From: Escherichia phage BubbaBully | Sequence record: OR896831.1 | Strand: one strand, 5' to 3' | DNA length: 51,209 bases | Shown here: piece by piece, positions 2,919 to 51,207 of the stretch | Layout of the letters: the number at the start of each line of letters is the position of its first letter | Position numbering within the stretch: the stretch's first letter is position 1 | Made by a program: the position numbers and the translations under genes | The notes under the pieces: model-generated | Told to the model about the DNA's origin: nothing | The model's database searches: none | What the model saw: only the letters and a program-made list of their open reading frames with translations

Positions 2919-2921
2919 TCC

Positions 2922-3671
2922 ATGAAGGTAAAAGGAATCGTTAAGCAGTGGAGATTTCCAGAAGCCAGCGAGCGGCAATTAAGCCGCTCCATTAAAGAGG
3001 CTGTAAGGGATCTGGTTGTGTTTATGCGCAGCAAAACAAGGGCGATGAAGTTTGACGCTACAGATCAGGAGATAAGCAGCGCGGAGGACGAGATCAAAGA
3101 TTTCGCAAAAGAGCTTGCGCTCTCCCTGATTGGTCTACTTCCGGCGCTTGCGTCTGCCGTGTACAAGTTCAACTCCAAGCAGTGGGTAAACGTGGCGAAA
3201 TCAACAGGTGGCGCGAACAATCCTGTTATCATCCTGCTAATCGCAGTCGGAGCCAATCAGAGCGAGGAATGGTATCAAACGCTTTACGGCGAGTGGAGCA
3301 ACATGAGCGCGGCCTCGTTTGATAAGCTTTTCACTAACATAATTAACGATTGGTCTGCTAACATCAGGCAAGCAAATTTCACCGGAAAGAAAGCCGAGCA
3401 AGTGAACGAGATCGCGGAGCGTCGATTCGCTGTTTACTCTTCATGGGCTGGAAACCGCGCAACGGGAATCATTGGATCGTGGAATAGTCGCCTTATGCGC
3501 CAGAGGTTGCTAGATGCTGGGGTGAATTCTTATTATTGGCATGGTATGCTAGACGAGCGCGAGCGACTCAAACACTTACAATGGGAGGGAAAGGAGATCG
3601 GGATTGACGAGATTCACCCCTTCCCTGGCGAGGAGTACGGTTGCAGATGTTGGGCTATTCCAAAATGGTAG
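2922..3671 (+). CDS. head morphogenesis protein (Mu F / SPP1 gp7-like)
   Basis: 249-aa ORF immediately after portal; position and size as in Mu-F-like minor head proteins. Confidence 0.55.
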   Translation: MKVKGIVKQWRFPEASERQLSRSIKEAVRDLVVFMRSKTRAMKFDATDQEISSAEDEIKDFAKELALSLIGLLPALASAVYKFNSKQWVNVAKSTGGANNPVIILLIAVGANQSEEWYQTLYGEWSNMSAASFDKLFTNIINDWSANIRQANFTGKKAEQVNEIAERRFAVYSSWAGNRATGIIGSWNSRLMRQRLLDAGVNSYYWHGMLDERERLKHLQWEGKEIGIDEIHPFPGEEYGCRCWAIPKW

Positions 3672-5807: not shown

Positions 5808-5835
5808 TTGCACGTTTAACAAAAAGTGCTATCAT
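5808..5835 (+). promoter_or_regulatory. sigma70-like promoter for major capsid gene (TTGCAC-16-TGcTATCAT)
   Basis: -35 TTGCAC 5808-5813, 16-bp spacer, extended -10 TG-n-TATCAT 5827-5835; the reversed box lies within the spacer and -10. Confidence 0.45.
5815..5832 (-). promoter_or_regulatory. conserved box, reversed orientation, overlapping capsid promoter
   Basis: TTTAACAAAAAGTGCTAT is the reverse complement of the box; followed by 8-bp hairpin 5839-5859 and strong RBS. Confidence 0.5.
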
Positions 5836-5876: not shown

Positions 5877-6839
5877 ATGACTAAAAAGTATGACGAATTT
5901 GACGCCAGCGTTGTAACCGCTCACCTGCAAATGCAGGGCGTTAAAAATGACGCTTCCGATATGGGTATCTGGACTGCGCAGGAGCTTCACAAGATCCGCT
6001 CCTCTGCATACGAAAAAGAATACCCTGTAGGCTCCGCGCTGCGAGTGTTCCCTGTCACCAACGAACTGAGCGACACTGACAAGACTTTCGAATACCAGAC
6101 TTTCGATAAAGTTGGCTACGCTAAAATCATCGCTGATTATACCGACGACCTGCCAACCGTTGACGCGCTGATGTCAACCGAGTTTGGTAAAGTGTTCCGC
6201 TTGGGTAACGCTTTCCTGATCTCCATTGACGAAATCAAAGCAGGTCAACGCACTGGTAAGAGCCTGAGCGCTCGCAAGGCAAACGCCGCGCAGAATGCTC
6301 ACGACCAGCTTGTAAACTTCCTGGTGTTCAAGGGTTCCAAGCCGCACAAAATTCTGAGCGTGTTTGAACACCCTAACCTGACCAAGATCGTAGCCGCTAA
6401 AAAATGGTACGACTCAAGCTCAAAAGCCAAAGAGCCAGAGCAAGCTTTCGACGATCTGACTGCGGCAATCGAAGCGCTGGAGACTCAGACCAACGGGCAG
6501 CACCGCGCTACCCACATTCTGATCCCGCCAAGCGTCCGTAAAGTTCTGATGGTTCGCATGGAAAATACCACTGAGAGCTACCTGGAATACTTCCAGAAGC
6601 AAAACGGCGGTATCACCATTGAAGCAATCGCAGAGCTTGAAGATATCGACGGTTCCGGCGGCAAGGGCGTACTGGTGTACGAAAAAGATCCAATGAATAT
6701 GTCCATTGAGATCCCCGAAGCATTCAATATGCTGCCAGCGCAGCCTAAAGACCTGCATTTCAAAGTGCCTTGCACCTCTAAATGCACTGGTCTGACAATC
6801 TATCGCCCATTAACTCTTGTGTTAATCACTGGCGTGTAA
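5877..6839 (+). CDS. major capsid protein
   Basis: 320 aa; own promoter, strong RBS AAGGAGAAAG, terminator downstream; position after scaffold and decoration genes. Confidence 0.65.
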   Translation: MTKKYDEFDASVVTAHLQMQGVKNDASDMGIWTAQELHKIRSSAYEKEYPVGSALRVFPVTNELSDTDKTFEYQTFDKVGYAKIIADYTDDLPTVDALMSTEFGKVFRLGNAFLISIDEIKAGQRTGKSLSARKANAAQNAHDQLVNFLVFKGSKPHKILSVFEHPNLTKIVAAKKWYDSSSKAKEPEQAFDDLTAAIEALETQTNGQHRATHILIPPSVRKVLMVRMENTTESYLEYFQKQNGGITIEAIAELEDIDGSGGKGVLVYEKDPMNMSIEIPEAFNMLPAQPKDLHFKVPCTSKCTGLTIYRPLTLVLITGV

Positions 6840-9528: not shown

Positions 9529-9547
9529 TTTTAACAAAAAGTGCTAT
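9529..9547 (-). promoter_or_regulatory. conserved box, reversed orientation, in tail-operon leader
   Basis: TTTTAACAAAAAGTGCTAT immediately upstream of the RBS of gene G. Confidence 0.5.
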
Positions 9548-9562: not shown

Positions 9563-9880
9563 ATGGCAAAGATGAAACTTACGCTTGCACCACTTCCAGA
9601 CTTCAAACTTCCAGTATCTTTTGTTATGCCTAACGGCGACGAGGGTCAAATCACCTTCACCGTGCGCCACCTGAAAGCGAAAGAAGTTCAGGAGCTTTAC
9701 GAAAGCGAAAACATCGTCACCGATTCAGATTTCATCATGAAGCTTGCGACGGGCTGGAACCTTGAGGAAGAATTCAACGAGGAAAACGCAAAGACTCTTG
9801 TCGAGTTCTACCCAGGCGCTGCGCTTGCCCTGACTGGTGCATATCTTTCCGCGCTGGCTGGTCAACGAGTAAAAAACTAA
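9563..9880 (+). CDS. tail assembly chaperone (G-like)
   Basis: 105 aa between major tail and tape measure genes; ends at slippery heptamer. Confidence 0.7.
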   Translation: MAKMKLTLAPLPDFKLPVSFVMPNGDEGQITFTVRHLKAKEVQELYESENIVTDSDFIMKLATGWNLEEEFNEENAKTLVEFYPGAALALTGAYLSALAGQRVKN

Positions 9881-10194
9881 AACGCGCCGTCTACCTGTTT
9901 TATCAAAAGCCGCCTACTGATGCAGAATTAGAGGCGGTTGGCCTCACAAGGGCAGACTATGAAGGCGAGGAACCGCCAGAAGTTATATTTGATGAATCAA
10001 TGATGCAGTCATGGGATGTATTCTGCGCAATGCAGACTCAATGGCGATCTGCTGGTGGCGGCGCTTATGGCCTTGATTACAACGTCCTCCCGATGCTCTT
10101 TGAAATATACAAGATCACAGATCGGGAAATGGCATTGAATGACCTGCGGATCATGGAAAGTAAAGCGCTCGAAATGATGCACGCAGGAAAATAA
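9563..10194 (+). CDS. tail assembly chaperone G-T fusion (via -1 frameshift at 9871-9877)
   Basis: -1 frame after the heptamer translates without stops into track ORF 10000-10194; conserved G/GT arrangement upstream of tape measure. Confidence 0.65.
9871..9877 (+). other. -1 programmed ribosomal frameshift slippery heptamer A_AAA_AAC
   Basis: Heptamer in frame at last two sense codons of G; -1 frame stays open to 10194. Confidence 0.7.
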
Positions 10195-10196
10195 AC

Positions 10197-10221
10197 GAGC
10201 GCCTTTTGGCGCTCTTTTCTT
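10197..10221 (+). terminator. terminator-like hairpin before tape measure gene
   Basis: GAGCGCC-tttt-GGCGCTC followed by a T-rich run. Confidence 0.45.
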
Positions 10222-10237
10222 ATCTGGAGGTAACTTA

Positions 10238-12949
10238 ATGGCGGAACAATACGCGGGTTTAACGTTAGGCGTTGACGTTCAGCAGGTAAACAACGCAGTT
10301 AAATCACTGAGGGATTTTAAGACCGCTTCCGAGGGCGCGGCTGATGGTCTTGAGTCTTTCGTCAATGAGGAGCAGATTGCACGACAGAGAGCCAAAGATC
10401 TGGCCTCAGAGCTTGCGAAGCAGAGAAAGGAGTTTCAGAGCGTACAGGCGGCGATAGATCCGACTGCTGCAAAAATGGAGCGCTTAAAGGCTGCGGCGGC
10501 TGGCCTAGATAAGCTTTGGAAAAAAGGTATAGTTCCTGACGAAACATTTTTCCAACTCGGAGAAATGCTTGAGACTCAAGCGAATAAACTCGCAGCCAAC
10601 AGAAAAGCGTTAACGGCTGAGGGCAGGGCAGCAATCGAGGAGTCAAAGCAGAAAGCGAAAGCGGCGGCTGAGGCTCAGAAATTCATTGCGGCACTGGAGG
10701 CGCAAGCGGCTGCGGCGGGTAAAACTCAATCCGAACTGATGGAAATGAAAGCTGCGCAGCTTGGAGTTTCGGCACAGGCGGCTCCATTCATTGAGAGAAT
10801 GCGCCAGCAGGAGCAAGCAACGGAAAAGCTTGGGATCTCAATGGGTCAGTATCGGCAGGCTATGCGAATGCTTCCGGCTCAAATCACGGACGTTGCAACA
10901 TCACTAGCTAGCGGTATGCCGATCTGGTTGGTTGCAATACAGCAGGGCGGTCAGATTAAGGACTCTTTCGGCGGGATTATCCCAACGTTTAAGGCGCTTT
11001 TGAGCTTGATTAGCCCTCTGAAAGTTGGCTTTGGTGCGGTTGTCGGTGTGCTTGGTTACATGGCTTACAGCGCATATAGCGCACGAAAAGAACTGAAAGA
11101 GATCTCAAAAACCATTCAGGATGCGACGGGCTTCACTTCTGACTTCTCAAACAAGCTTGCTGTTTCGGTTCAGGAACTGGCTAGCGTTTCGGGCAAATCA
11201 TCCGAGGAGCTTGTTAAATCGTTCGCCACAACGAAGGACACAGCCGGATCACTGATCAAGAAGCTTGTTGATCTCGGAGTGTCATACTCTGATGCGGCAG
11301 ATATGGCTCGACAGTACCAGCGCGACGGCGATATCTCAAAGCTTAACGGAAAGATTGCTGAGCATATGCAGAAGGTTGCAGAGCTTGAAAAAACATGGTG
11401 GGATGTAGCAAAGGCTCGATTAAAAGCGATGGGTGGCGTGCTTACTGGCGATGTTGAGGGAACGGAATACGCCGGAAAGAAAGACACACGACGAAAGAGC
11501 AACCTGGAAAACGCGCTCGAAATCATGACCGAGTACGGCAAGAAGAACAAGGAGATCGCAGACCTAAACTCTAAAGCTTTGGCTGAGGCGACTGCTGAGA
11601 TTGAAAAGCAATATTTCAACACTAACAGGGTTGCAAACGCTCAACAAGAACTTAACCAACTGATTGCAAATCAGAAGAAGCTTGAAAAGTCGAATAACGA
11701 GGAGGCGAAGCAACAAGCCGCTTATCTTATCAAGGCGAAGAAACAGGAGATTGAAGATCTCAAAAAACTTGAGGAGAAGAAGGGCAAAACAACCTCAAAA
11801 GGCGGTGGCGGCGGTGGCGTAGTCGAACAGCTTGATAAAGAGCTTTACGTGCTGCAAGCGCAGTTAAAAACCCTGAAAGAACATCGCACCGTTAACGATG
11901 TTATCTCAAGCCAGCGCCGTTCTTTGTGGAGCATTGAGAAGCAAATCGAGATCCTGGAGGAAGCGCAAAGCAAGCGACAGCTAACGGCTGGAGAGAAAAA
12001 ACTTCTTGCCGAGCAAAAGAGAGCGATTGAGCTTGCGCGGCAAAAAGCGGAGATTGGCGATCAGATTGTTCTACAGGAGCGGAGCAACAAGCTTTACCAA
12101 AACTCCCTTGAGTTCATCCGAAACACTCAGTCCGAGATTGACATTCTCAACCTGAAACAGCAGGGAATGACAGATGATCAGATTCGCAGAGAGCAGGAGC
12201 TACAGAAAATCAAGAATGATTATCTTGCGAAGGGTGGAAGCGTTGACGATCAGGTTTATCAGGACATGATCAAGAAAAGGACGGAGTATTACCAGACGGA
12301 GGACGCGCTGAGGGATAACTGGCTGGCTGGTGCAAAAAATGCTTGGGCTGAGTATGCACGAGACGCAACGGACATGTACGGCAACGTGCAGGAGATTGCA
12401 AGTAGCGCCCTGAGTGGTTTAACTGATCAAATGACTGAATTCTTAACGACAGGAAAGGCAAACTTTGCAGACTTTGCAAACAGCATTCTCAAGATGATTG
12501 TCCAGATGATCAGTAAGATGGTTATCTTTAACGCGCTGTCTGGATTGACCGGAGGCTCAACGTGGACTATGGGATCTCTAATGAGCGGTTTCTCGTCTGG
12601 TGGGTACACTGGCGACGGCGGCAAATATGATCCGGCTGGCATCGTTCACAAGGGTGAATTTGTTTTCACCAAAGAGGCAACGCAACGAATCGGTGCGCGG
12701 AATCTTTACAGACTCATGCGTGGATATGCAAACGGCGGCAGTGTTGGCGGTTCGTCATACTCTCGCGGCGCGTCGGCTGGCGGTGTTGGATCTCAATTCA
12801 ATTTCGGTGATATCATGGTTGACGTGAACAACGGCAACGATCCAAAAGGGATGGAAACCGGAATCAAGATGATTTTCACAGAAATGATTCAGCGGTCTTG
12901 CTCGCAAGGAGGAGAGGTTTATAACTTTGTTAATAGTAAGAGGGGGTAA
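10238..12949 (+). CDS. tail tape measure protein
   Basis: 903 aa, long coiled-coil-rich protein with Gly run, between chaperone and minor tail genes. Confidence 0.85.
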   Translation: MAEQYAGLTLGVDVQQVNNAVKSLRDFKTASEGAADGLESFVNEEQIARQRAKDLASELAKQRKEFQSVQAAIDPTAAKMERLKAAAAGLDKLWKKGIVPDETFFQLGEMLETQANKLAANRKALTAEGRAAIEESKQKAKAAAEAQKFIAALEAQAAAAGKTQSELMEMKAAQLGVSAQAAPFIERMRQQEQATEKLGISMGQYRQAMRMLPAQITDVATSLASGMPIWLVAIQQGGQIKDSFGGIIPTFKALLSLISPLKVGFGAVVGVLGYMAYSAYSARKELKEISKTIQDATGFTSDFSNKLAVSVQELASVSGKSSEELVKSFATTKDTAGSLIKKLVDLGVSYSDAADMARQYQRDGDISKLNGKIAEHMQKVAELEKTWWDVAKARLKAMGGVLTGDVEGTEYAGKKDTRRKSNLENALEIMTEYGKKNKEIADLNSKALAEATAEIEKQYFNTNRVANAQQELNQLIANQKKLEKSNNEEAKQQAAYLIKAKKQEIEDLKKLEEKKGKTTSKGGGGGGVVEQLDKELYVLQAQLKTLKEHRTVNDVISSQRRSLWSIEKQIEILEEAQSKRQLTAGEKKLLAEQKRAIELARQKAEIGDQIVLQERSNKLYQNSLEFIRNTQSEIDILNLKQQGMTDDQIRREQELQKIKNDYLAKGGSVDDQVYQDMIKKRTEYYQTEDALRDNWLAGAKNAWAEYARDATDMYGNVQEIASSALSGLTDQMTEFLTTGKANFADFANSILKMIVQMISKMVIFNALSGLTGGSTWTMGSLMSGFSSGGYTGDGGKYDPAGIVHKGEFVFTKEATQRIGARNLYRLMRGYANGGSVGGSSYSRGASAGGVGSQFNFGDIMVDVNNGNDPKGMETGIKMIFTEMIQRSCSQGGEVYNFVNSKRG

Positions 12950-22781: not shown

Positions 22782-23204
22782 ATGCACATTATTACCGGAG
22801 AAATTCGAAAAGAGCCGCGAATCAAGCAGACTCAAAACGGCACGCTTTACGTAGTTGAGTTGTCAGAGCGCTACAAAGACCGTGAAGGAAACGCTCAGTA
22901 CACAAATTACACGTTTTTCTTTAATGCTCGCGCCGGATCTGAGGGTATGAAAAACTGGTATGATGAGGCGTTCCAGGTCGGCAAGGTGATCTCTGTTTCT
23001 TGCGAAGTGCTAAAGGCAGAATTGCGAGAGTATGAGGGGAAGACGTATGTCACCATGCAAGCGGCAGACTTCCCGAAACTGCTGTTTAGCCAGCGCGGAA
23101 TCGCAGCGCCACAACAGCAAAGCCAACCACGGCAGCAAAGCCAAATCCAGCCACGGCAGAGCCAAGAGCCGCCAATCGACTTTGACGACGATATCCCATT
23201 CTAA
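22782..23204 (+). CDS. ssb: single-stranded DNA-binding protein
   Basis: 140 aa; Q/P-rich linker and acidic C-terminal tail DFDDDIPF typical of SSB. Confidence 0.75.
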   Translation: MHIITGEIRKEPRIKQTQNGTLYVVELSERYKDREGNAQYTNYTFFFNARAGSEGMKNWYDEAFQVGKVISVSCEVLKAELREYEGKTYVTMQAADFPKLLFSQRGIAAPQQQSQPRQQSQIQPRQSQEPPIDFDDDIPF

Positions 23205-25253: not shown

Positions 25254-27392
25254 TTACTGCAACGCTTTGATTAGCAATTTAAGATCTTCAATCTCTGCTT
25301 TCAGGTTGTCGATCTCCTCTTGTTGCTTGTTAACTATCTCCTTTTGCTCTTTGAATGCGTTAACCAAAAGTGCAACAACGCCGTTATAGTTAACACCTTT
25401 AATTGCCTCTCCTTTTGGATCTGGCTCTCCATCGTTATTCAAAGAATGAACCGCTTCCGGTAAAACTCTTTCAACATCTTGCGCTATCAGTCCAGCCTCA
25501 ATACTATAAACGCTGTTTTCATCTTCAATCAGATTGTTTCGTTTGTAGTAAGTGTAACCAGTTAGATAGTCAATTTTGTCGGATGCCGTTTCGATCTCTT
25601 TTAGATTTGCTTTCATCCTTATGTCAGATGTGCTAACCCATTGGTTACAAACTGCACCTCCAGCGTTATTGAAAATGAAGTCTGCACCCTTTACATAAAG
25701 GTGAGTTTCAGCGCCGCCAGCAGACCAGTTAACACAATCCAATCCGGTGATCCAATCGTGACCCCAATGAACAGCCTTAAAAATACTTATTGCAGCATCA
25801 TGTGACGGAATTTCGCACAAAACACCAGTCGCCCTATCACGCCAAGCTGAAAAACTACCAGCTTGCAACTTACCACCAATAAAAAATGAACCAGAACCAG
25901 TCCTAGTACCTTCAACATACGCAAAGCGAGTGTTTTCCGGCGCATATGATGTAATTGGCTTGTATGCCGCAAGTTGCTCTGGAGTCCACGCTATAATATT
26001 TTGACCGTCAGAAACAGCCTGGATAACTCCGTCACTACTCCACCTTAAACCGCTATCGCTATCGCCAATCGCAATCGCATTTGCACCAAGCACATGATCA
26101 GACATGCCTATAGCTAGAGATGAAAAGTTTGAAAGATATCCGCGCTCATCTATCTGCAAATAACTATTACCCCCTCCAGGCCTGAATGTATGAATTGTTG
26201 TTTTAGACAACCCACCTTTGATCTCGTTATAAATTCTAGAGTTTGAAACATCGTTTCCGTTTGCATGTCTATTTGTAAGGTAAATTAAACCAGAGTTAGC
26301 ACCATTCTTTTCAATAAGATGCACGCCCCTAAAAACAGGAATATCAGCCTCACCAATGCCAAAATTGTTTCTTGCTTGACTTATGTTTGTTGCACCAGTT
26401 CCGCCCTGTTGAACACCAAGAGGAATAAACTGTTGCGATGCGGTATTCCAGTAACCCCAACCATCGTTACCAACTGTAAGGTATTTGATCTTATCCGGCG
26501 AATGAATAAACGTTTCACCATCGCCCTGATTAAATCGGTCAACCTTCAACGCCTCCCTTGCAAGGTCTTTGTTTGCAAGATCATTAAGGTTTTGATCTTT
26601 ATGCAGAAGATTTTCAGGCTGTACCTGTTGCACCAATTGGCGAGCTTCATCACGCGCAGTTTCAGCACCAGACTTTGCGTTATTGGCATCAGCGGCATGA
26701 TTTCCAGCCGCATCACGCGCCAATTCAGCCTGATCGCGAGCGCCGAAAGCCTCTTGCTTAATGGCTTCCGTTTCGGTTACGGCTGAATCTTTAATCTGTT
26801 CTGTTTGCGCCTTTATTGCGTCAGTATCTGCCTTAATCTGGTTTGTTTCAGCGACAGCAGAATCCTTTATCTGTTCTGTTTGCGCCTTTATTGCGTCAGT
26901 ATCTGCCTTAATCTGGTTTGTTTCAGCGACAGCAGAATCCTTTATCTGTTGAGTGTCGTTTTTAAGTTGTTCAGTTGCAGCGAGATTGGCGGCTGTTTTT
27001 TCTGCATCACCTTTAACCTGGTTAACCAAATCCTGCAAAGCTTTCAGGTCAAAGTTTTTGAAAAATTCAATAGCTTCCTCGATCTGAGTCTCTTTGCTTT
27101 GATAGTAGCGCAGAGTTTCCGCAACATCTTGCGCGAGGCCATCAACCGTGATTGAGTCATGCAGCAAAATGATGTAATTGCTTCGCCCAATTTCAGCGCC
27201 GCCAGTTGTGATGGCGCGGATTTGTGTGTCACTGATAACTTCACTGATCACAGCCGCTTGAAAAGGAGCATCAATAAAAAAGATTGTTGCACCAGGGCGG
27301 ATTAGTGAAAGTTGCTCACGCCATTTTGTATCATATCCGGTGATGTATCCTTGAGCGTCCATAGACGCTTGACCCTTGCGGTAAATAGCCAT
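25254..27392 (-). CDS. tail fibre protein with C-terminal intramolecular chaperone (peptidase S74-like)
   Basis: 712 aa; C-terminal SDIRMK...YNGVVALLVNAFKEQ chaperone-type segment; internal 25-aa tandem repeats. Confidence 0.8.
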   Translation of the reverse strand: MAIYRKGQASMDAQGYITGYDTKWREQLSLIRPGATIFFIDAPFQAAVISEVISDTQIRAITTGGAEIGRSNYIILLHDSITVDGLAQDVAETLRYYQSKETQIEEAIEFFKNFDLKALQDLVNQVKGDAEKTAANLAATEQLKNDTQQIKDSAVAETNQIKADTDAIKAQTEQIKDSAVAETNQIKADTDAIKAQTEQIKDSAVTETEAIKQEAFGARDQAELARDAAGNHAADANNAKSGAETARDEARQLVQQVQPENLLHKDQNLNDLANKDLAREALKVDRFNQGDGETFIHSPDKIKYLTVGNDGWGYWNTASQQFIPLGVQQGGTGATNISQARNNFGIGEADIPVFRGVHLIEKNGANSGLIYLTNRHANGNDVSNSRIYNEIKGGLSKTTIHTFRPGGGNSYLQIDERGYLSNFSSLAIGMSDHVLGANAIAIGDSDSGLRWSSDGVIQAVSDGQNIIAWTPEQLAAYKPITSYAPENTRFAYVEGTRTGSGSFFIGGKLQAGSFSAWRDRATGVLCEIPSHDAAISIFKAVHWGHDWITGLDCVNWSAGGAETHLYVKGADFIFNNAGGAVCNQWVSTSDIRMKANLKEIETASDKIDYLTGYTYYKRNNLIEDENSVYSIEAGLIAQDVERVLPEAVHSLNNDGEPDPKGEAIKGVNYNGVVALLVNAFKEQKEIVNKQQEEIDNLKAEIEDLKLLIKALQ
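26782..26949. repeat. 75-bp tandem direct repeat (about 2.2 copies) inside tail fibre gene
   Basis: Near-identical 75-nt units in phase with the reading frame, encoding TEQIKDSAVAETNQIKADTDAIKAQ repeats. Confidence 0.8.
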
Positions 27393-27496: not shown

Positions 27497-28453
27497 TTAC
27501 CGTGTCGGGAGTAAAGTTTCCGGCTTGTAAAGCTTTCGCTCTATCCCTTGCCGGAAATTATCGTTAATGGGGAGCATCACGTCAAGCCCTCTCTCCTCAG
27601 CGGCGATTATTACATCCTGATCGGTTGACTTACACACCACGCGCATCTTGCGATCTCCTTTGTATCGGTGCGCAACAATCTCAACGTTATAACTTGAGAA
27701 GCAAGCCCACACCTCTTGGCCTGTAGACAGGTGTATGTGTTGAGCATCGACCCAATCAACGCACAGATAGATCGTGTTGTCAGTCTTACCAGTCACCGCA
27801 ACAGAGCCTCGCGTATAGTCCTTTGCATAAAAAATCTTCTCTCCTAACTCGTCAATCATGAGGATGTTACACATTTCATCATCAAGACCATCGTCATTCA
27901 CGAGGTAGCAAGGGATTGCGTGAATAAGCGACTCTCCGCCATTCTCCAGCGTTTTCACGCCTACAGAGTACATTTCATCATCTGGCGGCGCGATGCCCTC
28001 AAAAACGCTTAGGGGAGTTTTAGGCACGCCTTTCGTTCTTTCCATTACTGCAACACAGTTTTCATGCGGAGCCTGTGAACCGAAAGAGTAACCTGATGCG
28101 CGGGAGGCTCGCTTGTTTGCCTTGACTATATACTCCTGCGGAACCTTTCCGAGAAAGCGGCCTAAAATGTTGATACACTCGCTATAAGGCTCACCAGTTA
28201 GCTTCATTAACCAGCCAATGCCGCTATCATTTCCGCAACCGTTGCACACTGCGCCTCCGTCGCCGTCAGTGCTAAGTTTGTCAGTCCAACGGAATCGGTC
28301 TTTCCCTCCGCAATGAGGGCATGGCTGGTGTTTCTTGTTGAAAACGTCATTACTCAAACCGCAAATGCTTTGAAGCGCATCGCGCCACATTCCTTTCATG
28401 TACGGCAATACATCCTCTTTCTGAAACATCATGTTTGGGTGTACTTCTTGCAT
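27497..28453 (-). CDS. DNA primase (zinc-ribbon type)
   Basis: CPHCGGKDRFRW...CNGCG zinc-binding motif; start set at ATG 28453 with GGAGA RBS (track ORF uses TTG at 28465). Confidence 0.6.
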   Translation of the reverse strand: MQEVHPNMMFQKEDVLPYMKGMWRDALQSICGLSNDVFNKKHQPCPHCGGKDRFRWTDKLSTDGDGGAVCNGCGNDSGIGWLMKLTGEPYSECINILGRFLGKVPQEYIVKANKRASRASGYSFGSQAPHENCVAVMERTKGVPKTPLSVFEGIAPPDDEMYSVGVKTLENGGESLIHAIPCYLVNDDGLDDEMCNILMIDELGEKIFYAKDYTRGSVAVTGKTDNTIYLCVDWVDAQHIHLSTGQEVWACFSSYNVEIVAHRYKGDRKMRVVCKSTDQDVIIAAEERGLDVMLPINDNFRQGIERKLYKPETLLPTR

Positions 28454-28510
28454 GGCTTTCTCCAATAAAAAATCGCGTAGCCGGATGATACCAGATACGC
28501 GATCTTTGGT

Positions 28511-28951
28511 TTAGCTATTCGTGCTGTTTATGAAGTCCGACTCTTTCACGACGCGCAGCATTTCGTATCGGTCGCATTTCGTCGTTAGCGCTTTTCCGTT
28601 GGAGTCAAATCTCAGGTCAGGACGGCAGAATGAAGCTCGATATCCCTTGCAGCCGTTTCGCTTATAGTCGGCGTGAACCTTTTCGGCTCCAGAAACTGAA
28701 ATCATCCCGCGCTTGCGCCACTGCTGAATAACTTGGTGAGTAACCTTTAAACGCCTTGTCATTTCCGCCTGAGATCCGTAATATTCGCAAACGGCATCTA
28801 GACGAGCACGCAATCCGGCTTTGACTTCATCCTTTAGAACGTAGTAGCCTGTTTTGCGCTTGCGTTTTTTCTTGTCTTTACCGCGCTTTACCCCGTTGTT
28901 GCCATTGATTGTGCGCTTGTCAATTTCGCCAGTTGATGCAGCAATTTTCAT
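28511..28951 (-). CDS. putative HTH DNA-binding protein with basic N-terminus and Cys cluster
   Basis: Start at internal ATG 28951 (GGAGG RBS); track ORF N-terminus overlaps the box of the divergent promoter; HTH-like segment MTRRLKVTHQVIQQWRKRGMIS. Confidence 0.45.
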   Translation of the reverse strand: MKIAASTGEIDKRTINGNNGVKRGKDKKKRKRKTGYYVLKDEVKAGLRARLDAVCEYYGSQAEMTRRLKVTHQVIQQWRKRGMISVSGAEKVHADYKRNGCKGYRASFCRPDLRFDSNGKALTTKCDRYEMLRVVKESDFINSTNS

Positions 28952-28964
28952 ATTAAAACCTCCG

Positions 28965-29008
28965 ATAGCACTTTTTGCTAAAAACATTCAAAACGTAGGC
29001 GCTATTAT
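28965..29008 (+). promoter_or_regulatory. box promoter (box + 22-bp spacer + TATTAT) for helicase gene
   Basis: ATAGCACTTTTTGCTAAAA 28965-28983; -10 TATTAT 29003-29008; 32 nt upstream of the helicase start. Confidence 0.55.
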
Positions 29009-29040: not shown

Positions 29041-31041
29041 ATGGCAATTCCAAACATTGATAAACAGCTTTCCGCTTTGGGTGAGGCGGTTATTAAGGCG
29101 ATCCAGGATCGCTTCACGTTTGGCGAAATCACCCCATACCCTTACCAGTGCGTTGCATACACTGAGATCGCAAAGCGCATGAAGAACTATGAGCACCCTT
29201 TCTTTGTGAAAGCGTCCGTATCTGCTGGCAAAACAATGATTTTTGCAATGGTCGCGGCTCAGTGCCAGAGGATGGGGCTTAAAATGATGGTTCTTGCTCG
29301 CCAGGGTGAGATCGTGGATCAGGATTCAGAAGAGATCAGCAACTTCGGAGTGCCTAACTCCGTTTACTGCGCCGCTCTGAAACTCAAGGGCGTACACTTC
29401 CCCATCGTGGTTGGCTCTGAGGGAACCGTTTCAAACGGGCTGTTTAAGGCGCTGGGCGACTACGTGCCGCACGTTATCGGGATTGACGAATGCCACCAGG
29501 TAGATTGGGAGGATTTAGCCGAGGCTATCGAGAACGAGGAGCCTTGGGAGCAAATGACCACGAAAAAAGGCGAGATTGTCCTGAATGGTGACGGCTCCCG
29601 CGCTCTCAACAATGACGGTGAACCAATGGAGGGAACAGGTCGCACGCAATACACGCTTATCATTCGAGAAATGCAGCGCCGATGCAAAGAGACATACGGG
29701 CATGAGTTGCGCATTTTTGGAATGACCGGATCTGAGTTTCGCGGAGTTGTTCCAATCCTGGTAGAAGATAAGCGCCAGCGCGGTTTCTGGCGCGAGCAGG
29801 TAACGAACATTGATACCAACTACCTGATCAAGTTTGGCTCCGTTGTTCCGACAAACTTTGGCGGCGTAGATGGATTGGGTTATGACCTTTCAGAGTTCAC
29901 TGCATCCAGCGAGGACGGCGTAGCAGACTTTGACCAGAAAACTCTGCGCAAGATGGAGGAGAAGATACATAAAGATGCAACCATGACGCAAAAAATCATG
30001 GCACGCGTGCATGAGATCTGCAAAAACCGCAACGGCGTTCTGGTAACTTGCGCGGGTGAGCGTCACTGTAAAGAGGCCGCCGCCGCACTTCCGCCAGGCG
30101 CAACATACAGAATCATCACTGGCAAGACCGGAGAGAAACAGCGTAAGGAGTGGCTGAAAGAAGCATTCGAGGGAAAAGTAAAATACATTTTCCAGGTTCA
30201 GGCTTTGACCACTGGCGTAAACGTTCCTTATTGGGATACGTCCGTCATACTGCGCAAAATCGGCTCGCTTACACTGCTTATTCAGCTTTTGGGGCGCGGT
30301 ATGCGACTGTTAAAGAAATGGCACATTGAGCAAGGATTTAAGAAAGATGATCACCTTGTTCTCGACTTTGCCGGATGTATGGACGAATTAGGACAGCTTT
30401 ACTTTGATCCGATTCTGGAGCAAGCGCAGTATCAGCGCCGTGGCGACAACGGAAAAGATCCTAAATTCTGCCCTGACTGCGGCACGGAAAACTCATTCTA
30501 TGCACGCCGCTGTGTTAAAGTTGACGAGAGCGGCAACCGCTGCGAGTATTTTTGGAAGTATCGAGAGTGCGAGGATCAGGTAGACCCGCGCACGAAAAAG
30601 GTTATCGTAAAAGGCTGCGGAACCAAAAACGATATAGCCGCAAGGGTGTGCCGCTGCTGCGATGTTTCGCTCGTTGACCCTAACGAAAAGTTATCCGGCA
30701 AGCACTACACAAAAAACGATTGGTGCAATGTGAAATCGTTCCGTGTCGATATGACAAAAAACCAGCGCGGAATCGTGTTCTGTTATGAGCTTGAGGCGCA
30801 CGGGGAAACGTTCAAAGCTTATGAGCGATTCTTCCCTGAGTCTGACAATCAGATCTGTAAAACACTATGGAGGCAAACGGTTCTCAAGCACATTGCAGAT
30901 CGCAGGATTGCAGGTGTTACGGCGAGCTATCGCAACGCACGCAAGATTATGCAAAATGCGCATCACATTATGGCTCCGAAGCGCGTTACGCATCGCAAAA
31001 ACGCGAAAGGAGAGGACATTATTTATCATCGGGAGTTTTGA
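29041..31041 (+). CDS. ATP-dependent helicase (DEAD/DEAH-type) with C-terminal zinc ribbons
   Basis: 666 aa; Walker A SAGKT, DECH box, helicase C motifs, C-terminal CxxC pairs. Confidence 0.8.
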   Translation: MAIPNIDKQLSALGEAVIKAIQDRFTFGEITPYPYQCVAYTEIAKRMKNYEHPFFVKASVSAGKTMIFAMVAAQCQRMGLKMMVLARQGEIVDQDSEEISNFGVPNSVYCAALKLKGVHFPIVVGSEGTVSNGLFKALGDYVPHVIGIDECHQVDWEDLAEAIENEEPWEQMTTKKGEIVLNGDGSRALNNDGEPMEGTGRTQYTLIIREMQRRCKETYGHELRIFGMTGSEFRGVVPILVEDKRQRGFWREQVTNIDTNYLIKFGSVVPTNFGGVDGLGYDLSEFTASSEDGVADFDQKTLRKMEEKIHKDATMTQKIMARVHEICKNRNGVLVTCAGERHCKEAAAALPPGATYRIITGKTGEKQRKEWLKEAFEGKVKYIFQVQALTTGVNVPYWDTSVILRKIGSLTLLIQLLGRGMRLLKKWHIEQGFKKDDHLVLDFAGCMDELGQLYFDPILEQAQYQRRGDNGKDPKFCPDCGTENSFYARRCVKVDESGNRCEYFWKYRECEDQVDPRTKKVIVKGCGTKNDIAARVCRCCDVSLVDPNEKLSGKHYTKNDWCNVKSFRVDMTKNQRGIVFCYELEAHGETFKAYERFFPESDNQICKTLWRQTVLKHIADRRIAGVTASYRNARKIMQNAHHIMAPKRVTHRKNAKGEDIIYHREF

Positions 31042-34038: not shown

Positions 34039-35157
34039 ATGATTCAGAAAATGACAGACCAGCAGTTTAAAGAAGCACGAGCAGAGGGCAAAACCTACAA
34101 GCAGATCGCGGAGGAGTTCGGCTTGAATGTTCGCACCGTTGAGCGCCGCGCGGCACGACTTGCCCGCCAAGGTGAAACTAACACGAAAGGCGCACCAGGT
34201 TTTGCGGTTGTTCGTGAGTCAGTCCTGACCCGCGCAAACGGCGAAGAAGTGATGCGCTGGACTATCACCAACAAAGATAAAGAGCAGTTGGAAGCGCTCA
34301 TGCAAGCCGCGATGGAGGCATTCGCTGAGGAAGTGCCACGCCTTGAGCCTCAGCCGGAAAGCCACAAAGACTACAGCGAAAGCCTTGCGCTATATCCGAT
34401 CTTTGATATGCACATTGGTGCAATGGCTCATAAGCACGAGTGCGGCGAGAATTGGGACACGGCAACCGCCGAGAAGGTCATGAATGACTTCTTTGATTAT
34501 GCTGTAGAGTGTGCGCCAAACAGCGAAAAGGCTGTGCTCCTGATTGGTGGCGATATGCTTCACAGTGACGGCCTTGAGGCTGTAACACCTGCTAGCGGTC
34601 ACGTTCTTGATCAGGATAGCCGCTATGCCAAACTGGTTTATGTCGCAATCCGAGCTACTCGTCGCGCTATCTCCTTGATGTTGACCAAACACAAAGAGAT
34701 TGAGGTTCAGGTTATCGAGGGCAATCATGACCAGTCAGGGATGATCTGGCTACGCGCAGCAATGGCGGCGGCATACGAGAACGAGCCACGCGTGACGGTT
34801 GATGTTTCTCCTCGCGTAGTGCATCACACGCAGTACGGAAAAACCTTCCTTGCTTATCACCACGGGCACACTGTGCGCAAGCCGGAGGCGTTGTTGATGA
34901 TGTGCGCGTCGGATTGGCGAGAGGACTTCGGGATCTCAAAATCAATGTATGCTCACGTTGGACATTGGCATCACCAGACCGTAACAGAAACCAGCCTGGG
35001 GATTGTTGAAGTTCACAGCACAATGGCGGCTAAAGATGCATATGCAGCTCGCGGAGGTTGGCGCTCTCGTCGTCGCGCGGCGGTTATCATCTACGACAAA
35101 GAGCACGGCGAGATCGGGCGCTTCATGTTCTACCCTGAAATGATGGAGTCAAAATAA
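34039..35157 (+). CDS. metallophosphoesterase (calcineurin-like) with N-terminal HTH-like region
   Basis: 372 aa; motifs DMH, GGDMLHSD, GNHD, HHGH; N-terminal KTYKQIAEEFGLNVRTVERR resembles an HTH. Confidence 0.65.
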   Translation: MIQKMTDQQFKEARAEGKTYKQIAEEFGLNVRTVERRAARLARQGETNTKGAPGFAVVRESVLTRANGEEVMRWTITNKDKEQLEALMQAAMEAFAEEVPRLEPQPESHKDYSESLALYPIFDMHIGAMAHKHECGENWDTATAEKVMNDFFDYAVECAPNSEKAVLLIGGDMLHSDGLEAVTPASGHVLDQDSRYAKLVYVAIRATRRAISLMLTKHKEIEVQVIEGNHDQSGMIWLRAAMAAAYENEPRVTVDVSPRVVHHTQYGKTFLAYHHGHTVRKPEALLMMCASDWREDFGISKSMYAHVGHWHHQTVTETSLGIVEVHSTMAAKDAYAARGGWRSRRRAAVIIYDKEHGEIGRFMFYPEMMESK

Positions 35158-36167: not shown

Positions 36168-36559
36168 AACGATTAGCTTTGGCGGTACTGGTTGCCGCCT
36201 CTCTTTCTGGTTGTTCAGCGTCAAGCGCTCTGAGTGATCTTATCGGCAGCAAGCCGGAAATCACAGCACAGGCCGGATCCGAAAACGTAAAGCAGACAGT
36301 AGGCGTTACGGCTAAAAATGACGAGAGCAGCAAGCAGGAAAACACGATCAAGGATTCGCAGGTTGGAAAGGTTGACTCCTCCAACAAAAAGAAAGTGAGC
36401 ACATCAAGCATCCAGGCTGAGACAATCACAGCCGACAAGATCGAGATCAGAAACAGCGATAGTGATTTGTATGTGATGTTCTTTGCGCTGGCTTGCTTTT
36501 TTGTTGCTGGCTTTGCGGCTGGCGTTGTTTGGAATTGCAGAAAAAATAAAGGGGCATAA
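36164..36559 (+). CDS. unimolecular spanin
   Basis: 131 aa with N-terminal lipobox (LSGCS) and C-terminal transmembrane helix; last gene of lysis cassette. Confidence 0.65.
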
Positions 36560-36570
36560 TGCCCCTTTTT
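36551..36570. terminator. bidirectional terminator hairpin containing the spanin stop codon
   Basis: GGGGCA-taa-TGCCCC flanked by A-run and T-run. Confidence 0.6.
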
Positions 36571-36762
36571 CTATTCTAGGAGTCGGACGTTAATCAATAC
36601 TACGCCGTCCTCGTCGTGCAGATTGTGCTCCTTTGCTGGATTGGCTCTCATGTCGCTATACAGGATCAGGAGTAGCGCCGCAATCATTTCGTCATGCGAT
36701 ACCGAATTTACGGCGCAATGCTTCATAATCGCATCTATTAGATTTTGTGTTGAATAATTCAT
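36571..36762 (-). CDS. hypothetical protein (doubtful)
   Basis: 63-aa ORF overlapping the 3' end of the upstream ORF in another frame. Confidence 0.3.
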   Translation of the reverse strand: MNYSTQNLIDAIMKHCAVNSVSHDEMIAALLLILYSDMRANPAKEHNLHDEDGVVLINVRLLE

Positions 36763-37084
36763 CGTCGCTTAACTCGTCAAGATGAAACAGATCGTAAATG
36801 TATTTGTTGCTTTCACCTTCAAGGCTATACAACTCAAACCCAAACGGCCTCTTGCGCGAGCCTTTGCACGTCACCACGCCTTTATCTATCCCAAGATATC
36901 CCAATGTAGCCATTCGCGGTATAAACTCAAGAGAAACGCTTGAGGCGAATTTACGAGGCGTCATATTGGCGGCTCTCGCGAGCCGCTCACATTCTTTGTG
37001 CTTAAAAACAAATCTCGCTAAGTGCTGGCGATTAAACCAATCGTAACTTTCGCAAAACTTATACAGATCCAGCAGAAACATCAT
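36692..37084 (-). CDS. hypothetical protein
   Basis: 130-aa ORF immediately downstream of the P-loop NTPase gene. Confidence 0.45.
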   Translation of the reverse strand: MMFLLDLYKFCESYDWFNRQHLARFVFKHKECERLARAANMTPRKFASSVSLEFIPRMATLGYLGIDKGVVTCKGSRKRPFGFELYSLEGESNKYIYDLFHLDELSDDELFNTKSNRCDYEALRRKFGIA

Positions 37085-37087
37085 TTA

Positions 37088-38665
37088 TCACCCCATTAAA
37101 GCAGGATTCACAAATACGCGCCCATTTGTGAGGCATACGTAATTCAGATCTTCAAGGATTGGAAGCAAGTGCCCCTCAATTCGCTTCATTACGCCAGACT
37201 GACCCAAGAACGGACGAACCTTACGCACAGACTCATAAATAGCTCGCGCAGTGATAGCGCCTTTATTGGCCTTTCCGAGTCTGGTTATCGTGTCGATAAT
37301 CTTGATCAACTCTGCATCCTGACCAGCATGACCTGATGCGTTTGCCGCGCTAATGTAGGTCTTGCTCAACTCCTGGAACATCAAGAGAGCCTCCTGCATA
37401 GTCTCAACGTCAATCTCCCGTGACTTTGTGGCGGTTCCGTTAACGTCCTGCCAGTTTCGGATCGTGTGGATAACGGAGGCCAGGCGAATAACCTGCTTAT
37501 CCATTTTACCCAACGCACCACGTAGCATTGTGTGAGAATATTCTCCGCCGTCTGCTAGTTTTGGCTCCATTTCCTGACGAGCCATGTTTAGCACGCGCAT
37601 AGCGGAGCGGCTAACTTTCAATGAAACGGATTGCTCCATCATGATATTGTGGATCAGCTTGTAATAGTCTGCTTTAAGACCTGCATCAACTGGCGTATAA
37701 GTTGTGTCTCCGTTGTCGTCAACGAATTTACGGCGGCCTAAGAATGACTCCTCGCGAACCAGCAAGAAACGCTCCGAAACACCGATACCACGAGCGCCAG
37801 CCTCCATAATGCCGCTGATTGTCTCGTCCTGCGCAATCACAGCCATGCAACCAAGAGCCGTAAAGCTCATGTTGTTTTCTGCATTTGCACGGGAAATGGA
37901 AACGTGACCGCTATCCCAAGCCTTTAGCACCAATTCACTGTTAGTCTTTCGCTCGCTATTTGCGTAAGTCAGCCCGAGCAGTGAGTTTATACTGGTTGCC
38001 TCGTCCGAGATAACAGCAAAGTTACCCTGGCGGAAGTTGATTTTAGCCAAACCCTCTGGAGTTGTGTCTGAAACCGGAAACACAACGTCGCACAGCTTTG
38101 CGAGCTTTTCCTCGTACTCCTCTTTTTCCTCGTAAAGCGCAGCGTACTCAGTACCTGAGCGCTCTGATTTTAACTCCTTTGCAATGCCGTTGAGTTTTGA
38201 CTGAATCTTTTTGCGCTCTTTCTTGCGTTGCTCGTTGATGCGCTCAACCTCTGCAACAATCGGGGCAATCGCCATTGAGTTAATGGCTGATTTACCAGTT
38301 GAAGGAGGCTGGCTTGTCACAACGTACAGCGCCGTTGGCTGATCGGTTCCGTGGTATTCCACGGTAAATCGCCCGAGCATCGCGGCAGACACACAGCCTA
38401 CGAAATGCATGTAGGCAGATGAAACAGGGAATTGAACGGATTCCGCCAAGCTGCGAGACAGCTTTCCTACAACGTCGCAATCGTTGCCGAGGGAAATAAC
38501 AGGATACTTGTCATTTCCGCTGTTAATGTCTTTAACATCACCCCAAAAACCAGACGAGCGAGAGTAGCCGTTTGCCTGGATTGCAACCTTAACGGCGCTC
38601 AAGCCTTGAGCCTCAGCCGTTGAAATGATTTGTTGTGGTGTCAGCGTGGATTGTTCAAAAAACAT
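37088..38665 (-). CDS. P-loop NTPase of unknown function
   Basis: 525 aa; Walker A-like PPSTGKS and Walker B-like AVISDE; own box promoter. Confidence 0.6.
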   Translation of the reverse strand: MFFEQSTLTPQQIISTAEAQGLSAVKVAIQANGYSRSSGFWGDVKDINSGNDKYPVISLGNDCDVVGKLSRSLAESVQFPVSSAYMHFVGCVSAAMLGRFTVEYHGTDQPTALYVVTSQPPSTGKSAINSMAIAPIVAEVERINEQRKKERKKIQSKLNGIAKELKSERSGTEYAALYEEKEEYEEKLAKLCDVVFPVSDTTPEGLAKINFRQGNFAVISDEATSINSLLGLTYANSERKTNSELVLKAWDSGHVSISRANAENNMSFTALGCMAVIAQDETISGIMEAGARGIGVSERFLLVREESFLGRRKFVDDNGDTTYTPVDAGLKADYYKLIHNIMMEQSVSLKVSRSAMRVLNMARQEMEPKLADGGEYSHTMLRGALGKMDKQVIRLASVIHTIRNWQDVNGTATKSREIDVETMQEALLMFQELSKTYISAANASGHAGQDAELIKIIDTITRLGKANKGAITARAIYESVRKVRPFLGQSGVMKRIEGHLLPILEDLNYVCLTNGRVFVNPALMG

Positions 38666-38693
38666 CTTAAAGTCTCCTTGTTGGTTGACCCGT

Positions 38694-38737
38694 ATTATAG
38701 GTCAACCATCTTACAGCCTTTTAGCAATTCGTGCTAT
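38694..38737 (-). promoter_or_regulatory. box promoter (box + 22 bp + TATAAT in hairpin loop)
   Basis: Box 38719-38737 overlaps TAG stop of upstream gene; TATAAT 38694-38699 in loop of GGTTGACC/GGTCAACC. Confidence 0.55.
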
Positions 38738-38979
38738 TTTAAACGTTCAACTTTTGCAAGCAATCTTCCATCTACAATGCTATGGCACTCAAGAGTTTCT
38801 GGATCGAAGTCTAGCGATCGATGGAATGAGTGACCAATCAGCAGATATCCGCCGCGCTGCCTTACCTGATAAACCGTTTCTCCTACTGAGAAAAGCGATA
38901 TGTCGCTAAACGTCACACGGAATCGGTTTTGAGCCATGCTCTTTGGAATGTGTTTTGTGTACTCTACGCCTTGAATCAT
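38734..38979 (-). CDS. hypothetical protein
   Basis: 81-aa ORF, ATGA overlap with upstream gene. Confidence 0.5.
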   Translation of the reverse strand: MIQGVEYTKHIPKSMAQNRFRVTFSDISLFSVGETVYQVRQRGGYLLIGHSFHRSLDFDPETLECHSIVDGRLLAKVERLK

Positions 38980-39341
38980 GAGTATTTCGCCTCGAACAAG
39001 TAAGCCCCACCAGCAGAGAAACCAACCTCCTCGCGGTACAGAGTAAAGCGGTCTCCGTCCTCGTCAAACACATAACCTGCAACGCCACCCAGTACGCGCC
39101 CTTGCTCGATCTGGTAGCGCTTGCCAGCCTTAAACGTTTTCTTGTGCTTCATGCTATGGTCTACCCAAGTGCATTTAATTGTTTTGGTTTTGATTTCTCG
39201 GAAATCGTTAAAATTTGCGTGCTCCCACTTTGAGCCTTTGGTTAATTCCTTAACCTGGAAAGCTCCAGTTTCAAAGAATTGAATCTCGTCAACAATTCGA
39301 CCTTTCATTAGTTTATTGTCGGCGTTGCGGATAACTTTCAT
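38976..39341 (-). CDS. hypothetical protein
   Basis: 121-aa ORF. Confidence 0.5.
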   Translation of the reverse strand: MKVIRNADNKLMKGRIVDEIQFFETGAFQVKELTKGSKWEHANFNDFREIKTKTIKCTWVDHSMKHKKTFKAGKRYQIEQGRVLGGVAGYVFDEDGDRFTLYREEVGFSAGGAYLFEAKYS

Positions 39342-50613: not shown

Positions 50614-50650
50614 CCCCGCGTTTGCGGGGTTTTTTTGTGCCTGTTATAAT
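50614..50650 (+). promoter_or_regulatory. terminator-promoter fusion unit (hairpin + T7 + TTGCGG-17-TG-n-TATAAT)
   Basis: CCCCGC-gttt-GCGGGG stem; -35 TTGCGG 50622-50627; extended -10 50642-50650; upstream of putative TerS. Confidence 0.5.
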
Positions 50651-50676
50651 TGGCCTCCAACAAGAGGAGGTTAACC

Positions 50677-51207
50677 ATGAGCAGAGAAGAAAAGCAAAAG
50701 CCATTCACGGCTTACAACTTTAAGAAACTATATAACAAGCAGTATGGCGATATCGCCACGCTAGGAAAGCAACACCGATACACGCCGGAGCAGGTTTTTA
50801 ACCTTGCCGTCAAATACTTTGAGTGGGCGGAGTCCAACGCACTAAAGGCGGCTGAATCTTCATCGTTCCAGGGGCGCACGTACCAGGACGAGGTAAACAA
50901 GCCGCGCGTTTTCACTTTCAACGGTCTGCGCCTGTTTTGCGGCTGGTCGCGATGCGCGATGGAGAAATGGAAGAAAGAGCCAGGTTTCTCCGAGGTTATG
51001 GAGTTTATCGAGTCTGTGATCTATGAGCAGAAATTCCAGCTTGCGGCTAACGGCGTGATTAACGCTGCATTCATCGCCAAAGATTTAGGAGTTGACCAGC
51101 CGACGCAAATCAACGTTAGCGCAAACTCCGAGTCAAGCGCTGCAATCGCAGAGGTTGGAGCCGACGAGGTGCGCGAGGCGGTTCGTGATATTCTTGCGGA
51201 GATCTGA
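50677..51207 (+). CDS. putative terminase small subunit
   Basis: 176 aa from ATG 50677 (GAGGAGG RBS); ends 2 nt before window end and, circularised, sits directly upstream of terL; call by position only. Confidence 0.5.
   Translation: MSREEKQKPFTAYNFKKLYNKQYGDIATLGKQHRYTPEQVFNLAVKYFEWAESNALKAAESSSFQGRTYQDEVNKPRVFTFNGLRLFCGWSRCAMEKWKKEPGFSEVMEFIESVIYEQKFQLAANGVINAAFIAKDLGVDQPTQINVSANSESSAAIAEVGADEVREAVRDILAEI

Follow-up and report, generated by a model that had tools for sequence, protein, structure and literature searches.

The helicase gene and its transcription unit

The window, that is, the whole stretch of 51,209 nucleotides analysed here, is the complete genome (~51 kb) of a T1-like siphovirus (Drexlerviridae, Henuseptimavirus-like). 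Its minus strand carries, at 37088-38665, a 525-aa ATG-to-stop open reading frame, with the ATG at 38665, the stop codon at 37088-37090 and a ribosome-binding site AAGGAG (38674-38679, minus strand) 8 nt ahead of the ATG. An earlier note on this DNA had recognised the frame together with a Walker A motif PPSTGKS and a Walker B motif AVISDE, all of which we confirm, and had called the product a P-loop NTPase of unknown role. Based on profile searches, an AlphaFold2 model and a fold search with that model, we correct this to a specific replication enzyme with an existing literature, namely a DUF3987 helicase of the MCM-like AAA+ type (superfamily 6, SF6): its orthologues are already annotated as helicases, and a replicative role for these SF6 proteins was predicted in 2016.

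Around the gene, nucleotide identity reaches about 90-92% to the phages Henu7, IsaakIselin, JohannLBurckhardt and vB_EclS_AS5, all of which are classified as Drexlerviridae, Tempevirinae, Henuseptimavirus. The IsaakIselin protein bas10_0048, labelled "putative helicase", is 98.7% identical to the 525-aa protein. Using tblastn, we found orthologues in 923 phage records, near full length in 908 of them, under database labels that go from "DNA helicase" or "putative helicase" down to "hypothetical protein", the label of the T1 orthologue. We conclude that this is a conserved, already annotated phage replication gene and not one for a new kind of ATPase.

The helicase gene is followed downstream, on the same strand, by a 130-aa gene (36692-37084, minus strand) whose small winged-helix product falls into PHROG 2794, a group of unknown function. 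The two genes are closely coupled (TGA-TAA-ATG) and adjoin each other in the Drexlerviridae records examined, T1 included. Together they form a two-gene unit, in the order box and -10, helicase, 130-aa frame and bidirectional terminator-like hairpin; the latter (36548-36568) closes this unit and equally ends the lysis cassette that converges on it from the opposite strand.

A 19-nt box, ATAGCACGAATTGCTAAAA, lies upstream of the helicase gene (38719-38737, minus strand). The pattern ATAGCAC-NNN-TTGYTAAAA, of which it is one copy, occurs 18 times in the window, whereas shuffles predict 0.11 occurrences. A -10-like hexamer TATAAT (38694-38699, minus strand) starts exactly 20 nt past the end of the box, and such a hexamer stands at the same distance after most of the other copies. 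The box promoter that the earlier note had placed at 38694-38737 is thus a real element, but a non-canonical one for sigma-70: the distance from TTGYTA to the -10 is 22 nt here, which does not make a standard sigma-70 -35/-10 promoter. Because of this non-standard spacing, a scan for the sigma-70 consensus called no promoter upstream of the gene. The box is the same element as the direct repeat aaATAGCACnnnTTGnTAAAA of phage TLS; the publication also points to this repeat in T1 and Rtp and leaves open what it does (PMC11447400). We found the orthologous box in IsaakIselin, SECphi27 and T1.

Between the box and the gene, an inverted repeat with the core GGTTGACC / GGTCAACC (38682-38708, minus strand) is predicted to fold into a hairpin of -15.2 kcal/mol (z -4.5). 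Its left arm stops at the first base of the -10, so that most of TATAAT would lie in the loop. The orthologous site of SECphi27 and T1 has a similar hairpin, though its stem is built from another sequence. A promoter architecture of box, hairpin and -10 is unusual. The layout suggests that one of the 18 box elements drives expression of the helicase and the 130-aa gene as a unit, with transcription ending at the bidirectional terminator.

Family assignment

The protein matches the Pfam family DUF3987 (PF13148) with an E-value of 1.1e-40 (140.4 bits, cut-off 27), residues 78-431 being aligned to profile positions 1-352 of 364, and it matches PHROG 2373, "DNA helicase", over its full length (E 1e-236). 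A profile built from 25 relatives and searched among 1.84 billion proteins retrieved 6,154 cluster representatives at E<=1e-3. The Pfam MCM model (PF00493) gave no match at E<=1, the DnaB_C profile and the RecA-type core were not matched, and a DnaB or gp4 helicase did not appear in any search. Searches of the PDB by sequence, with the single protein or with the profile, returned chance matches only, with no detectable similarity to any solved structure. NCBIfam and PADLOC searches found nothing for the helicase or its 130-aa partner. On sequence grounds, the protein is a full-length member of DUF3987, itself a divergent branch within the MCM-like AAA+ ATPases (superfamily 6).

This assignment agrees with previous work on the family. 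In 2016, Kazlauskas, Krupovic and Venclovas placed the phage DUF3987 proteins among the SF6 helicases as divergent relatives of MCM (98% HHsearch probability), noted their C-terminal wHTH and their association with primases, and predicted a replicative role; in the same survey, the DUF3987 member dns of phage N4 is essential for replication (PMC4889955). Kazlauskas et al. (2018) counted DUF3987 as one of the ATPase domains found instead of MCM, DnaB or RepA in the primase fusions that mobile elements carry. [quoted passage not shown] AgaPH and the helicase part of N4 dns belong to the same Pfam family as our protein over the full length. The family is distinct from that of Cch of the staphylococcal SCCmec element (DUF927, PDB 5dgk), which matches our protein worse than MCM does.

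The P-loop, taken alone, would also suit a packaging or structural ATPase. The earlier note had held that an assignment to a structural or packaging family would speak against its proposal, and no such family was matched in our searches. The terminase subunits are moreover encoded elsewhere, the small one at 50650-51207 and the large one, assigned by position as the first gene of the structural block, in the frame at 1-1572. As the fold is also MCM-like, we consider this explanation effectively refuted.

Predicted fold

The AlphaFold2 model (pLDDT 88, pTM 0.86) has a core of the AAA+ fold, and the fold search with the model places it closest to MCM. SF3, DnaB or RecA-type helicases are absent from the top 60 fold matches, and the model does not show the SF3 AAA+ core of P4 alpha, D5 or E1. 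The earlier note had proposed such a fold search as a check on its assignment; the result favours a helicase and argues against a helicase loader.

The order of elements was read from the secondary structure of the model. Strand beta1 (114-118) leads to the P-loop, after which a very long helix (125-167) and a return helix (171-190) build a long charged helical hairpin (aa ~127-190; 38096-38287, minus strand) that extends the helix after the P-loop. A helix (203-213) and strand beta3 (216-220) come next, followed by D221 and E222. A beta-hairpin (251-257 / 266-272), whose tip carries R259 (37883-37900, minus strand), leads into beta4 (273-278) and then Q279-D280-E281; this pre-sensor-1 hairpin is placed by the model together with conservation. 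After a helix (280-291), R299 and beta5 (300-304), the chain continues into a helical lid (~328-444) and ends in a C-terminal winged-helix domain (aa ~449-525; 37091-37321, minus strand).

MCM, the superfamily 6 AAA+ helicase of archaea and eukaryotes, is only 10-15% identical to the protein and differs from it in several respects. The N-terminal OB-fold/zinc domain of MCM is not seen in the model, where residues 1-96 are helical or extended, with neither a beta-barrel nor a cysteine cluster. No helix-2 insert is visible either, the plain helix 203-213 standing alone between beta2 and beta3, whereas the long helical hairpin after the P-loop helix is an insertion relative to MCM. The first 62 residues (38480-38665, minus strand) make up a lineage-specific N-terminal module of two short helices and an extended segment. 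Other members of the family carry a primase or DnaB N-terminal domain ahead of the core, and we regard this module as a candidate for partner binding.

Catalytic motifs and conservation

Conservation was assessed in a close set of 25 relatives (35-86% identity) and in a diverse set of 38 members, including fusions, with a mean identity of 19%. In the close set, the conserved blocks are QPPSxGKS, IS(D/A)E, IAQDE, GxSERF and RGxxGKxD. Across the diverse set, the only invariant residues are M1, P80, K125, E222, R259, Q279, G295, R299, E305 and K387; in the model, those after M1 fall on beta1 and the P-loop, beta3, the hairpin, beta4 and beta5.

The P-loop QPPSTGKS (aa 119-126; 38288-38311, minus strand) contains the invariant K125. 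The Walker B strand FAVISDE (aa 216-222; 38000-38020, minus strand) ends in the invariant E222 and has a nearly invariant S220, while the Walker B D221 is variable, being Ala in 8 of the 25 close relatives. The equivalents of the Walker A and Walker B residues that AgaPH requires are thus invariant in the family. The earlier note could place no other motif; four more positions can now be assigned. At the end of beta4, VIAQDE (aa 276-281; 37823-37840, minus strand) has the invariant Q279 at the sensor-1 position. The motif GVSERF (aa 295-300; 37766-37783, minus strand), which we take to resemble the SRF motif of MCM, provides the arginine-finger candidate, R299. In the lid domain, LRGALGKMDK (RGxxGK; aa 381-390; 37496-37525, minus strand) holds the invariant K387 and a nearly invariant G383 and is a sensor-2-like candidate. 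The fourth position is R259 of the hairpin. A beta-hairpin that precedes beta4 and bears an invariant arginine is typical of translocating AAA+ rings, and R259 is a candidate for a DNA-contacting residue in the central channel. The overall pattern suits an AAA+ motor that is active and oligomeric; a degenerate P-loop protein would not be expected to show it.

These data bear on two other readings of the protein. The first is that of an anti-defence or host-takeover ATPase, an option raised in the earlier note, for which one could cite that the gene neighbours DNA methyltransferases and sits in an arm of the early region where small genes of unknown function abound. We consider it highly improbable: no PADLOC defence family matches the protein at E<=0.01, the gene is not a variable one but recurs throughout Drexlerviridae and outside them (about 920 phage records), its catalytic residues are strictly conserved, and both family and fold are shared with replication helicases.

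The second is that of an initiator or origin-remodelling AAA+ protein, which would bind the origin with its winged helix, together with the 130-aa partner, melt the DNA and recruit host DnaB or the phage primase while staying off the moving fork. The C-terminal winged helix does match Cdc6/Orc winged helices as well, a co-transcribed winged-helix protein is present, the phage depends on a host polymerase, and the TLS genome paper identified no origin or loader in T1-like phages. On the other hand, Cdc6/Orc proteins align to the model over only ~80 residues, those of the winged helix, whereas the ATPase core matches MCM and its clade instead of initiator or clamp-loader AAA+ proteins. The model also has the beta-hairpin with an invariant arginine before beta4, one DUF3987 member, AgaPH, is a real helicase, and members of the family replace MCM, DnaB or RepA domains in primase fusions. 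An initiator role is therefore unlikely, though it is the alternative to which we give most weight.

Association with primases

Natural fusions connect DUF3987 to several kinds of replication domain. In P0154 and P0248, it is fused to a DnaG-type CHC2 zinc ribbon, in P0241 to a BT4734-like AEP N-terminal domain, in P0246 and P0267 to an NrS-1-polymerase-like HBD, and in P0184 to a DnaB N-terminal domain. A search of a viral structure library likewise returned primase-helicase fusions. P0154, which is 33% identical to our helicase over 464 aa (E 3e-85), was considered as a Rosetta stone for the primase encoded in the window. Its primase part is of the CHC2 DnaG type and has no BLASTP similarity to that primase; the fusion therefore supports primase coupling only in general.

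The window primase has a zinc ribbon of the T7-gp4 type (PHROG 510; 27497-28465, minus strand), and we propose it as the partner of the helicase. In Drexlerviridae, it is not adjacent to the helicase gene and lies about 9 kb away, beyond the lysis cassette; in the window, the two genes are on the same strand, with plus-strand genes, the lysis cassette among them, in between. A more compact arrangement is found in metagenomic phage contigs, including locus L004, which encode a DUF3987 protein 36-38% identical to ours. Their genes are all co-oriented and run in the order Dam, small ORF, DUF3987, small ORF, primase, SF2 helicase, further genes and SSB. The contig primase matches the window primase over the zinc-ribbon half (E 3e-11), and the contig SF2 helicase matches that of the window with 33% identity (E 6e-96). 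As homologues of both genes stand beside the DUF3987 gene in distant contigs, we regard the three genes as a conserved trio, which gene order indicates is contiguous in distant phages and split by rearrangement in Drexlerviridae.

The earlier note had suggested a primase-associated or helicase-loader ATPase. The first half of this suggestion points the right way, as the DUF3987 fusions and gene adjacency show for the family, whereas the second finds no support, given the MCM-like fold and the pre-sensor-1 hairpin. Our protein shares with AgaPH and N4 dns a C-terminal small or winged-helix domain; the primase association, which holds for the family and for distant relatives, is in its own case a probable one. 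Unlike AgaPH, it lacks a PriCT domain, forms no fusion with a primase and carries its own 62-aa N-terminal module; its presumed partner is a zinc-ribbon primase of the bacterial/T7 type some 9 kb away, in contrast to the adjacent AEP of the AgaPH type.

Other replication genes of the phage

The third member of the trio, an SF2 helicase (29041-31041, plus strand), is RadD-like (E 3e-58) and more likely a repair or fork-remodelling enzyme. [quoted passage not shown] The window further contains genes for an HTH regulator (28511-28987), exonuclease VIII and an Erf-like annealing protein, along with Dam-like and Dcm-like methylases, a polynucleotide kinase, a dNMP kinase and a phosphoesterase-type exonuclease. 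Neither a polymerase nor a DnaB-type helicase was found among the frames longer than 300 aa. Profile searches, or gene order shared with IsaakIselin, gave an assignment to all of these frames except three (1590-2918, 3683-4798 and 5877-6839), which lie in the structural-gene block. Those three unsearched frames aside, the genome has no fork-helicase candidate besides the DUF3987 protein.

The TLS genome paper took the SF2 helicase, and not the DUF3987 gene, to be the replication helicase. In another reading, the SF2 helicase or host DnaB would work at the fork and the DUF3987 protein would serve as a motor of recombination, repair or fork restart, for instance in branch migration for recombination-dependent replication and concatemer formation. 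We find this improbable, even more so than the initiator. The RadD-like SF2 protein is itself a repair-type helicase, DUF3987 is tied by fusion and adjacency to primases and not to recombinases, and N4 dns, a member of the same family, is essential for replication.

Discussion

Our analysis leads us to propose that the 525-aa protein is probably the replicative DNA helicase of this T1-like phage and works with the phage primase. By analogy with the ring helicases of its clade, it would assemble into a hexamer that binds ATP between neighbouring subunits, with R299 acting in trans. One DNA strand may be threaded through the central channel and touched by the R259 hairpins while the phage duplex is unwound. 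The helicase would cooperate with the zinc-ribbon primase (27497-28465), the SSB (22782-23204) and host DNA polymerase III, the latter being invoked because the phage encodes no polymerase. Contacts with partners or with the origin could be mediated by residues 1-62, by the C-terminal winged helix and possibly by the co-transcribed 130-aa winged-helix protein. We infer that the T1-like member hydrolyses ATP, unwinds DNA, assembles into hexamers and binds the primase.

The proposed role is that of T7 gp4 or of DnaB-DnaG, in which a ring-shaped helicase at the fork is coupled to a primase with a zinc ribbon; in P0184, nature has fused a DnaB N-terminal domain to DUF3987. The ATPase folds are unrelated, as T7 gp4 and DnaB have the RecA-type SF4 fold whereas our protein is an AAA+ protein.

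The direction of movement is where the two closest points of comparison disagree. MCM moves 3'-5', whereas AgaPH, the sole DUF3987 member assayed, moves 5'-3'; judged from the model, the MCM-like fold of our protein would predict 3'-5' movement, against the polarity of AgaPH. Our literature search yielded nothing usable on the essentiality of the helicase gene in Drexlerviridae or on the host-gene requirements of T1. Older work on T1 is said to have found that host elongation dna genes are required. If this requirement includes dnaB, the DUF3987 protein would not be the sole fork helicase.

A more far-reaching version of the proposal, which we put forward tentatively and consider doubtful as it stands, is a hybrid replisome. 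Its helicase would be an MCM-fold AAA+ ring lacking the N-terminal tier of MCM and bearing the unique helical hairpin; like DnaB, this ring would move 5'-3' along the template of the lagging strand. Coupling would link it both to a zinc-ribbon primase of the bacterial or T7 type and to host Pol III, and its own winged helix and a dedicated 130-aa winged-helix partner would help to load it. If this were true, it would represent an AAA+ solution to the job of DnaB in an easily handled E. coli phage.

The outcome for the gene itself is an ordinary one: it encodes a well-conserved, already annotated helicase and not a new kind of system. What is gained is the assignment of the likely fork helicase of Drexlerviridae, a group for which genome papers usually point to the SF2 helicase. 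As there is no solved DUF3987 structure and only one member has been assayed, the member from a T1-like E. coli phage would be a convenient model, with which one could ask in what way a helicase of the MCM fold works together with a primase of the bacterial type and a host polymerase, and in which direction such a helicase moves.

A promoter-like arrangement at the box

The box, a 19-nt repeat published for phage TLS and noted in T1 (ATAGCAC-NNN-TTGYTAAAA), occurs 18 times in the window, against 0.11 copies expected. On the plus strand it is found at 1569, 28965, 31457, 31976, 33421, 33762, 43261, 43955, 45356, 46147, 47430 and 48608, and on the minus strand at 5814, 9529, 38719, 39579, 40972 and 41898. 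At most copies a -10-like hexamer begins exactly 20 nt past the box, giving a distance of 22 nt between TTGYTA and the -10; no sigma-70 -35 element stands at the normal distance from the box-associated -10.

At 13 of the 18 copies a stable GC-rich hairpin either separates the box from the -10 or encloses the -10 (mean z of -2.6 compared to 0.0 for the control). At the promoter of the putative DUF3987 helicase the hairpin is kept in the window phage, SECphi27 and T1, while the stem sequence differs among the three. The box is described in the TLS genome paper (PMC11447400), of which the section consulted makes no mention of the fixed -10 or of the hairpins.

Two boxes, at 5814-5832 (-) and 9529-9547 (-), are oriented opposite to the surrounding plus-strand structural genes. 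Of these, 9529 (-) is followed at the customary spacing by the -10-like hexamer TAGAGT and, further along, by a terminator-like hairpin. Within the late region the two boxes may act as promoters of antisense or of small leftward transcripts.

Neighbours of the helicase gene

Closely coupled to the stop codon of the helicase is the gene of a 130-aa winged-helix protein (36692-37084, minus strand), annotated 'YdbL' in some records. In the Drexlerviridae records that were examined, T1 included, the two genes are adjacent, and the more distant DUF3987 loci lack the 130-aa gene. Our searches with the protein gave no specific match; it is a candidate for a role as loader or as origin-binding partner.

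A 121-aa ORF (38976-39341, minus strand; PHROG 2684, unknown function) is situated two genes upstream of the helicase and, compared by eye, looks like a 128-aa ORF at the equivalent position in SECphi27 (locus L003, 1828-2214). Stokar-Avihail et al. reported that type I Mokosh is triggered by an unnamed SECphi27 protein of 128 aa and unknown function, and the 128-aa ORF of L003 may be a candidate for this protein.

Elsewhere in the window, a lateral tail-fibre gene (712 aa; 25254-27392, minus strand), with a C-terminal endosialidase-chaperone domain, sits apart from the main structural block, with the SSB/recombination genes on one side and the primase on the other. The 372-aa 'DNA repair exonuclease' (34039-35157, plus strand; PHROG 704) has a sigma-70 region-4-like/HTH motif at its N-terminus (aa 13-46), an unusual addition for a phosphoesterase-type nuclease.

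Helicase relatives and annotation

In the metagenomic DUF3987 family member P0184 (666 aa), a DnaB N-terminal domain (PF00772, E 2e-22) is naturally fused to the DUF3987 AAA+ core, so that an MCM-fold motor bears the module with which the bacterial SF4 helicase binds primase. In the distant phage contig L006, the Hom_end_hint domain of the 971-aa SF2 helicase orthologue (9829-12744) suggests that an intein lies within this gene.

In the TLS genome paper (PMC11447400) the SF2 enzyme is the only one named as the replication helicase. The T1 orthologue of the DUF3987 helicase (MK213796.1, 44517-46085, corresponding to 1928-3496 of the T1 locus L007) is still annotated 'hypothetical protein'; even in the type phage T1, gene annotation trails the DUF3987 family assignment.
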